59,880 bases of DNA. It comes from a virus. Lineage: Duplodnaviria; Caudoviricetes. The position numbers were made by a program, and so were the translations under genes. Shown in pieces: positions 363 through 645 of this stretch (positions are counted from its first letter, which is position 1; every line of letters starts with the position of its first letter). The notes under the pieces are model-generated. The model worked only from the letters and a program-made list of their open reading frames with translations, was not told where the DNA came from and ran no database searches. The stretch is taken from IMG/VR virus record IMGVR_UViG_3300030419_004277, positions 1 through 59,880 of that record. One strand, given 5' to 3'.

Positions 363-645
363 ATGGGGTGTCGCTCGTCAGTACACACCCCATATATCTT
401 GACTCGCACTATGGCCATTCTCGTCAGAACCCACCGTTCCGTTCAAGAAGCTTTGGTGGGACTCCTGAGGGTAGGTAATAACCAAACCCAGCAGTAGCTC
501 TTAACCCTAGTCCCACACTTCAATTTTTTGCCTGTGTCGACCGTTTCAAAGCTTCCACTCGTTACACAGGCTATATAACAATGGGAGACTCAATCTACTT
601 TATCTAATACGGCCGAAGGGGGCTTCTCCCTTACCATGTTATATA
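363..645 (-). ncRNA. putative large structured ncRNA with pseudoknot, family unknown
   Basis: No ORF and GC-richer than flanks. Perfect helices: 363-371/385-393, 397-402/443-448, 456-463/509-516, 468-472/504-508, 530-537/564-571, 572-580/637-645, 583-588/625-630. Crossing helix 447-455/547-555. Promoter at 685-714 upstream. Confidence 0.65.

Follow-up and report, generated by a model that had tools for sequence, protein, structure and literature searches.

Many phage RNA genes are still nameless. Among those that have been described, the stable RNAs known as species 1 and 2 of phage T4 (rnaC and rnaD) are small, structured and abundantly transcribed from the tRNA gene region, and the put RNA of phage HK022 is a cis-acting leader RNA that acts on the transcribing polymerase without the need for a phage protein. 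The hammerhead and twister ribozymes recur in permuted form, in tandem copies and at intergenic positions. Theta ribozymes, which are HDV-like (that is, resemble the ribozyme of hepatitis delta virus), adjoin phage tRNAs (PMC10879173), and a catalogue compiled from IMG/VR comprises 8,495 unnamed covarying motifs of 29-151 nucleotides (nt), many of them upstream of genes or tRNA-like (PMC10690425). Here we describe a folded, multi-domain RNA of ~325 nt (from ~677 to 350) encoded on the minus strand of a 59,880-bp sequence from an uncultured marine phage, which makes up an entire IMG/VR virus record and is referred to throughout as the window. The third of the domains of this element, at 456-516, is a copy of a compact module that is widespread amongst phages and that apparently represents an uncatalogued, phage-specific RNA family with a single-copy, permutable core.

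The module is short, holds ~25 invariant bases, and occurs in two topologies and at one copy in phages that are unrelated at the protein level, a pattern that points to a function residing in the RNA itself or in something universal in bacteria. Like T4 species 1 and 2, the window RNA occupies an RNA gene slot near tRNA or tRNA-like and homing-endonuclease genes, but it has no tRNA-like part and its conserved module is spread over unrelated phages; the likeness is one of habit. With put RNA the module shares its place in a short structured RNA downstream of early promoters, at one or two copies per genome; it differs in also being found behind stop codons and inside non-coding RNAs, and here too the resemblance is one of habit. 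Close in habit as well are the hammerhead, twister and theta ribozymes, with which the module has in common a length of ~50 nt, a core set between free helices, permutation, tandem copies and tRNA-like neighbours. No Rfam ribozyme model matches, however, and the CUGACGAG words of the window RNA are hairpin tips and not a hammerhead core; catalysis would be a candidate property. The module may be one of the motifs of the IMG/VR catalogue, which draws on the same data source, although the available part of that catalogue describes no permuted module (PMC10690425).

The conserved module and its distribution

A first-pass annotation of the window, made from sequence alone, had treated the entire multi-domain element as one structured RNA. 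Comparison with other phages places the conservation in domain 3 only, as a widespread module that this annotation had missed. The 76-amino-acid protein encoded downstream of the element led to a related viral locus (L005; 75% identity), in which 20 nt of the upstream RNA recur as a word in domain 3. Made degenerate, this word retrieved 20 viral loci and a pattern for the rearranged form retrieved 23, while a relaxed pattern found six loci among 185,579 species genomes, three of which look real and phage-like, with a full permuted module behind a promoter. When all loci were compared using nhmmer, only domain 3 and the promoter were common to the window and its relatives. Exact-pattern scans with pieces of domain 3, domain 2, domain 3 plus hairpin, and domains 4 and 5 returned no viral contigs; a metagenome scan returned four near-identical loci; and blastn against GenBank phages gave no match to the element, to the long RNA of the relatives or to a permuted leader. 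A gapped pattern containing two CUGACGAG words hit at least 120 loci, none of which matched the element or the models described below; these hits were treated as chance and reused as a negative control.

In its standard form, the module consists of stem 1, an 11-nt bulge (ARGGUUMAGAG), a 3-bp CYA/UGG helix, a CY bulge and a G-C pair, in that order, with a 3' part made up of a small internal loop followed by a hairpin of any sequence and length. The ~25 invariant bases lie in an asymmetric internal loop, which is held by two helices of free sequence. Permuted modules close stem 1 with a tetraloop (UUCG, UACG, AAYC or others), and it is their second helix that opens towards the flanking sequence. 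We collected 13 standard and 17 circularly permuted examples. Across the standard forms (alignment A2, n = 13), 95.9% of cells are paired, compared with 78.6 +/- 1.7% in shuffles and 29-53% with slid partners; 8 of 15 pairs change on both sides, and the covariation score was reached by none of 500 shuffles. The permuted forms (alignment A4, n = 17) behave alike, with 95.0% of cells paired as compared with 77.5%, and 7 of 13 pairs changing on both sides. Both sets contain G-U pairs, which would read as A-C mismatches on the opposite strand, so that the structure is one of RNA from this strand. The module tolerates circular permutation, and is autonomous and phage-specific.

Two models, R1 and R2, define the module. 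R1 matches the window at 456-516 with 63.2 bits (E = 2.5e-14), the sole copy there, and the only extra match of either model is a partial R2 hit to the same core; 80 unrelated viral loci, totalling 625,784 bases, gave no match. The window copy comprises stem 1 (GGGACU/AGUCCC), the 11-nt bulge AGGGUUAAGAG, the CYA/UGG helix, a CU bulge, the G-C pair and a variable hairpin, and departs from the consensus at two core positions, with U for C (keeping a G-U pair) and A for U (giving an A-A mismatch). The inner AGGGT/ACCCT helix that had been drawn within this domain does not survive the comparison: in natural variants and 12 relatives AGGGU forms part of the invariant unpaired bulge, and ACCC has its partner, GGGU, within a self-contained hairpin. 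The near-identical locus L148 and contigs of sequencing runs X13 and X18 lack 11 nt of this hairpin, leaving GGGU-UU-ACCC; ACCC must therefore pair within the hairpin, and the relatives likewise do without the helix first proposed.

Copy number was one per viral record in all ten records searched, one of these having two. The ten include records of 173.8 kb and 44.8 kb (the latter, L017, with terminal repeats), both rated 100% complete, in which the module lies at 30.8 of 173.8 kb and 30.2 of 44.8 kb and so not at an end. BLASTP between these two complete carriers gave no match at E <= 1e-4 (151 versus 761 open reading frames (ORFs) of at least 50 amino acids), a comparison that could miss a small or very divergent shared protein. 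In 10 of 11 whole-contig loci (L008, L009, L011, L018 and L020-L025, with L006 as the exception) the module was found within ~1 kb of a contig end; assemblies may break at the module because strains differ in the RNA slot.

The module is usually found in 5' leaders, of mRNAs or of tRNA-like RNAs. At eight loci (L150, L151, L154, L158, L159, L166, L167 and L169) it stands behind a strong TTGACA/TATAAT promoter and 20-35 nt before a start codon, from which it is separated by a CA-rich spacer; in L006 and L008, 6-8 nt separate its end from the ATG. In L005, L019 and L020 it is plainly a gene leader, lying between a promoter and a conserved small gene. Elsewhere it directly follows a stop codon (L163, L168, L170) or lies inside a long non-coding RNA, and in L157, L020 and L162 it forms exact or near tandem pairs. 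At L157:539-638, two almost identical 49-nt module units sit right behind a TTGACA/TATAAT promoter; at L020:669-806, a tandem pair of modules is followed by a hairpin with a U-run.

In the nearest relatives of the window, the module starts an RNA of 240-276 nt (L007:5814-6075, L010:1975-2219, L012:336-575, L013:61-300 and L016:621-896), which continues into a covarying middle domain and then a tRNA-like domain. The latter has an acceptor-type stem closing on a perfect T-arm, together with an anticodon-like hairpin carrying the invariant loop CUAAUCA. Throughout this long RNA, 21 of 69 predicted pairs are preserved where both partners have changed; it receives no call from ARAGORN or Rfam. The L009-type and L017 architectures likewise join the module to an RNA bearing a T-arm. 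At L017:3075-3160, a tRNA-shaped RNA of ~72 nt follows the module by 9 bases; it possesses a T-arm, its GCCA end is encoded, and ARAGORN does not call it. In L005 a separate promoter-to-terminator RNA of ~330 nt (1740-2075), with an internal T-arm-like hairpin, lies ahead of the module RNA; the tmRNA model picks up its T-loop and nothing else (12 bits). The 250 nt upstream of the window RNA, including both of its promoters, align with L012 and L013 at 68% mean column identity (three rows); downstream of the tandem promoters, the window and these relatives differ except for the module. The window RNA is thus the positional counterpart of the long RNA of the relatives, in a conserved 'RNA gene slot'.

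Architecture and transcription of the window RNA

The features of the locus, from upstream to downstream along the minus strand, are as follows (MFE, minimum free energy).

784-816, minus strand: upstream tandem promoter copy (TTGACT, 18 nt, TATATT), matching the motif with one mismatch and found by consensus scan
685-717, minus strand: proximal promoter copy (TTGACT at 714-709, 18-nt spacer, TAGCTT at 690-685), an exact match in the alignment of eight copies
646-684, minus strand: A-rich 5' leader, read from the sequence, with GUGUUGA-like first bases common to other promoter copies
572-645, minus strand: domain 1, with a 9-bp AU-rich outer stem (572-580/637-645) of perfect complements that also appears in the MFE fold
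583-588/625-630, minus strand: inner stem of domain 1, 6 bp (GGGAGA/UCUCCC), followed by a branched tip
530-571, minus strand: domain 2, with an 8-bp stem (530-537/564-571) and an apical loop forming the 5' strand of the proposed pseudoknot (547-555)
456-516, minus strand: domain 3, the conserved phage module, with outer stem 456-463/509-516
447-455, minus strand: 3' strand of the proposed 9-bp pseudoknot, the exact complement of 547-555
397-448, minus strand: domain 4, a 6-bp outer stem (397-402/443-448) and irregular hairpin with a GACG tetraloop (425-422), from the MFE fold
363-393, minus strand: domain 5, a 9-bp GC-rich hairpin (363-371/385-393) with GACG at its tip (379-376), from the MFE fold
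338-362, minus strand: tail GAAAAUUUUAAAAAAA, a weak terminator at best
305-337, minus strand: promoter copy of the next gene, an exact motif match
48-278, minus strand: downstream gene of 76 amino acids, with its ATG at 278 and 25 homologues, all unnamed, among them proteins 92-99% identical

All of the stems and both of the promoters listed in the first-pass annotation could be read directly from the sequence at the coordinates it gave. Domain 3 is preceded by a 160-nt leader containing domains 1 and 2 and is followed by domains 4 and 5, with no T-arm. Over 326 nt the element contains five perfect inverted repeats of at least 8 bp, compared with a mean of 0.50 in dinucleotide shuffles (five being reached in 0 of 2000), and three of at least 9 bp, compared with 0.117 expected (three being reached in 0 of 2000). 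The minus strand folds at -95.6 kcal/mol as compared with -81.3 +/- 4.8 in shuffles (z = -2.96) and the plus strand gives z = -3.20; on either strand, none of 100 shuffles folds as well. That the structured RNA lies on the gene strand is supported by the promoter motif, which is repeated eight times on that strand, by the G-U pairs, and by an RNA-run contig that falls inside the element. The description of the stretch as GC-richer also holds (GC 0.39-0.49 across 301-600, compared with 0.27-0.37 beside it). Its description as free of ORFs stands in part: ORFs of 30-44 amino acids do overlap the element, but indels of 11, 4, 2 and 1 nt fall within them in natural variants, so that none is a conserved reading frame.

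The crossing complement between 547-555 and 447-455 is present and exact over 9 nt, as had been claimed. Taken alone it lies within chance, with at least one 9-mer complement somewhere in 11% of shuffles, and its 3' strand shares two bases (447-448) with the stem of domain 4, so that the proposed pseudoknot would compete with 2 bp of that domain. Because both strands are invariant in every variant obtained, covariation speaks neither for nor against it. The CUGACGAG motif occurs twice in the element, each time, in the MFE fold, at the tip of a simple GACG-capped hairpin. Such hairpins are not a genome-wide motif: these two are the only ones with stems of at least 4 bp on the minus strand of the window. 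A hammerhead ribozyme, in which CUGANGA and GAAA form the core of a three-helix junction with a cleavage site, was considered and rejected, as there was no model hit and only GACG survives in a natural variant; the duplicated CUGACGAG is not a hammerhead core, since it marks two GACG-capped hairpins.

Three of the four metagenome loci are identical to the window over the element, except for one tail base, and the tail (338-362) varies in length by one base among L146-L149. In L148 and the contigs of runs X13 and X18, which share the hairpin deletion described above, the core of the module has the consensus bases (C for U, U for A), with A for G in the bulge. A contig of run X17 is ~90% alike, with ~20 differing positions inside domain 4 and at the tip of domain 5. 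When this variant was rebuilt from the listed differences, the same two hairpins folded, both keeping the GACG tetraloop on new stems; in domain 5 the outer stem and loop are kept and the inner stem is new. One variant lacks 3 nt of the 3' strand of domain 1. A 401-nt RNA-library contig shares only 527-598 with the window (domain 2 and the edge of domain 1), and DNA contigs join that piece to other sequence. Because 527-598 occurs joined to other sequence, domain 2 looks like a swappable unit that recombines between RNAs. The RNA slot swaps whole domains between strains, and may in this way show how phages assemble composite RNAs.

The view that the element is not a tRNA, tmRNA, RNase P RNA, signal recognition particle RNA or known riboswitch was borne out. 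Rfam 15, 6S and Y RNAs and ribozymes included, gave no window match at the gathering score and, with E up to 10 on 200-1100, three chance-level hits of 12-18 bits against cut-offs of 42-55; on 14 loci of relatives it found only true tRNAs, and E-value scans gave nothing over the RNAs of L016, L157 and L160. ARAGORN called no tRNA or tmRNA gene in the window or in L146, L147 and L149, and the T-arm expected of a tRNA-like RNA, with its GGUUCGANUCC-type loop and closing acceptor stem, is lacking from the window RNA. The core sequence of the module was not found in the text of the literature.

The promoters at 685-717 and 305-337 represent a single motif, in which TGCTTGACTTATAT is followed by a spacer and then TAGCTT. 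The motif has nine matches in the window, eight of them on the minus strand (7-20, 324-337, 704-717, 803-816, 5979-5992, 6451-6464, 19411-19424 and 21147-21160), compared with 1.1 expected on both strands (0 of 100 shuffles). Across the eight minus-strand copies, the layout is TGCTTGACTTATAT, spacer, TAGCTTTAG, the -10-like part of which recalls what we take to be the TAnnTTTG element of Bacteroidota promoters. At protein genes the start codon lies 12-35 nt downstream of the motif; the copy at 717 is followed only by a three-codon frame. We infer from the sequence a transcript start near 677. The promoter previously assigned to the RNA proved to be two in tandem, and a tandem pair likewise precedes the counterpart RNA in related phages; the next gene has a promoter of its own, as had also been proposed, the 305-337 copy sitting between the RNA and the ATG at 278. 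A scan for terminator-like sites in window 1-1500 returned none: domain 5 is followed by GAAAAUUUUA7, and at the 3' end of the element there is no GC-rich hairpin with an immediate U-run.

A 234-nt contig of RNA run X18 lies wholly within the element (371-615) and spans the module uncut. A 370-nt contig of RNA run X17 (164-493) starts within domain 3, crosses the second promoter and reaches into the next gene. Its alignment breaks off at 493, where CAC and UG of the invariant core are parted, and an adapter adjoins the opposite end; this one contig hints that an RNA may end within the module. No contig covered 659-987 in three RNA runs, and a DNA run did; contigs cannot show absence, and this gap was not used as evidence.

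Possible roles of the module

Because its carriers share no protein and cell genomes are almost without it, the module would be expected to work by its own chemistry, or else through a small ligand or a macromolecule conserved among hosts. As a tentative reading, to which we give somewhat less than even weight, domain 3 would be a docking or processing site on early transcripts, with domain 2 (perhaps as part of the pseudoknot) and the GACG hairpins as accessory elements. The window RNA could then form a scaffold that presents the module, perhaps clamped by the pairing of the domain 2 loop with the linker. The two GACG-capped hairpins might act as further recognition sites, and the RNA might function as a small, stable species in its own right or serve, once processed, as leader to the next gene. 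Several points weigh against such a role. It is predicted from sequence and context; the window copy of the module could be slightly degenerate, given that the co-occurring strain L148 has the consensus at the two deviating positions. Domains 1, 2, 4 and 5 have no homologue outside near-identical strains, and the roles ascribed to them and to the pseudoknot derive from a single sequence and a partial variant of it. The RNA may be only a leader, and not the stand-alone RNA of the first-pass annotation, since the X17 contig bridges into the next gene, and RNA-library contigs in any case show presence and not transcript ends, with DNA carry-over possible. The limit on protein size in the BLASTP comparison of the two carriers counts here as well.

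Domain 3 could alternatively be a new small self-cleaving ribozyme, trimming leaders in front of phage mRNAs and tRNA-like RNAs. The cut might fall in the CAC/UG bulge and would divide the window RNA into a 5' small RNA and a 3' leader-mRNA. We regard this bold alternative as unlikely. Circular permutation in two topologies, tandem copies (L157, L020, L162) and intergenic as well as leader positions are what such ribozymes would lead one to expect, and tRNA-like domains adjoin the module in three unrelated architectures (L012-type, L009-type and L017). The lack of any protein common to the two complete carriers, of any visible expression platform in the eight leaders read by eye, and the X17 contig that stops at 493 within the core with its other end at an adapter, fit as well. 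Yet that contig end is a single observation in which a loose end is not visible, the X18 contig runs through the module uncut, Rfam holds no matching ribozyme model and, to our knowledge, ~25 invariant bases are more than known small ribozymes have. Slightly more doubtful is a broader form of the idea, in which domain 3 would be a new autonomous catalytic class: a permutable, ~50-nt self-cleaving module, of which diverse marine phages would keep one copy, in an early-transcript leader or that of a tRNA-like RNA, so as to set RNA ends with neither host nor phage protein. The window RNA would then be the most elaborate carrier of a catalytic module, with a cut at CAC/UG releasing a 5' small RNA and a leader-mRNA that retains the GACG hairpins. 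Whether ribozyme, ligand sensor or host-factor trap, the module would constitute a new RNA class, and possibly a compact tool for RNA processing or control.

It is also conceivable, if improbable, that the element is only a cis-acting leader, a riboswitch-like aptamer or protein operator, that governs read-through or translation of the 76-amino-acid gene. The module does lie between promoter and conserved small gene in L005, L019 and L020, stands 20-35 nt before the start codon at eight loci and 6-8 nt before the ATG in L006 and L008, and no terminator-like site separates RNA and gene in the window. The window gene, however, has its own promoter between the RNA and its ATG, the genes downstream of the module are mutually unrelated, and the module also follows stop codons (L163, L168, L170) and occurs inside long RNAs with tRNA-like domains. 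Reading by eye revealed neither an evident alternative helix in the CA-rich spacers after the eight leader copies nor an alternative pairing with the ribosome-binding site. Most improbable of all, in our judgement, is a feature of the DNA itself, for example an origin of replication, a site of packaging or recombination, or the remains of a decayed RNA-gene island that now serves no function. One copy per genome, the strain-level indels and swapped segments around the element, and the position within ~1 kb of a contig end in 10 of 11 whole-contig sites would suit it. Against it, G-U pairs are tolerated on one strand only, compensatory changes occur in free-sequence helices, and the module is always oriented with the promoters and genes. 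Complete genomes do not have it at an end, and the idea of a replication origin was dropped, as no GC-skew turn is seen across 57 kb of the window.

Mimicry of a host RNA was considered separately, using E. coli as a stand-in and not as the host. With filters off, the best R1 hit in the E. coli rrn operon scored 5.9 bits; on the K-12 chromosome R1 found nothing and R2 made one partial hit (13.8 bits, E = 2.6). A complement search gave four three-mismatch hits, compared with 1.7 expected, and mimicry was rejected. The bulge resembles what we take to be a 16S hairpin and the 23S L11 site, likenesses that are not borne out by the E. coli model searches; a likeness to the RNase P S-domain found no support. 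The complement of the invariant bulge (window 495-506) reads like what is presumably a boxA antitermination word (GCUCUUAA), so that the RNA would carry an 'anti-boxA'; no target for it was found in the E. coli rrn operon.

The phage and the surroundings of the element

The window belongs to a giant-phage genome, of which it makes up 32% by CheckV estimate, and has a GC content of ~31-34%. The minus strand carries 64 of its 65 ORFs of at least 120 amino acids. Sixteen DNA runs contain at least 75% of the words sampled from window 1-1400, and their labels read marine, seawater, estuary or plain metagenome, with one coded organism name; counting RNA runs as well, 20 runs from 13 studies contain it. 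A cultured close relative was not found, a 656-amino-acid neighbour protein having 33-36% identity to two phage records. Neighbouring proteins of 76 and 79 amino acids have no Pfam or PHROG family match, and a GIY-YIG gene lies at 1680-2225. An RNA-library contig covers window 1029-1244. The ORF-free stretch upstream at 830-1100 contains several hairpins, such as a 10-bp stem at ~868-901, and may hold terminators or a further small RNA.

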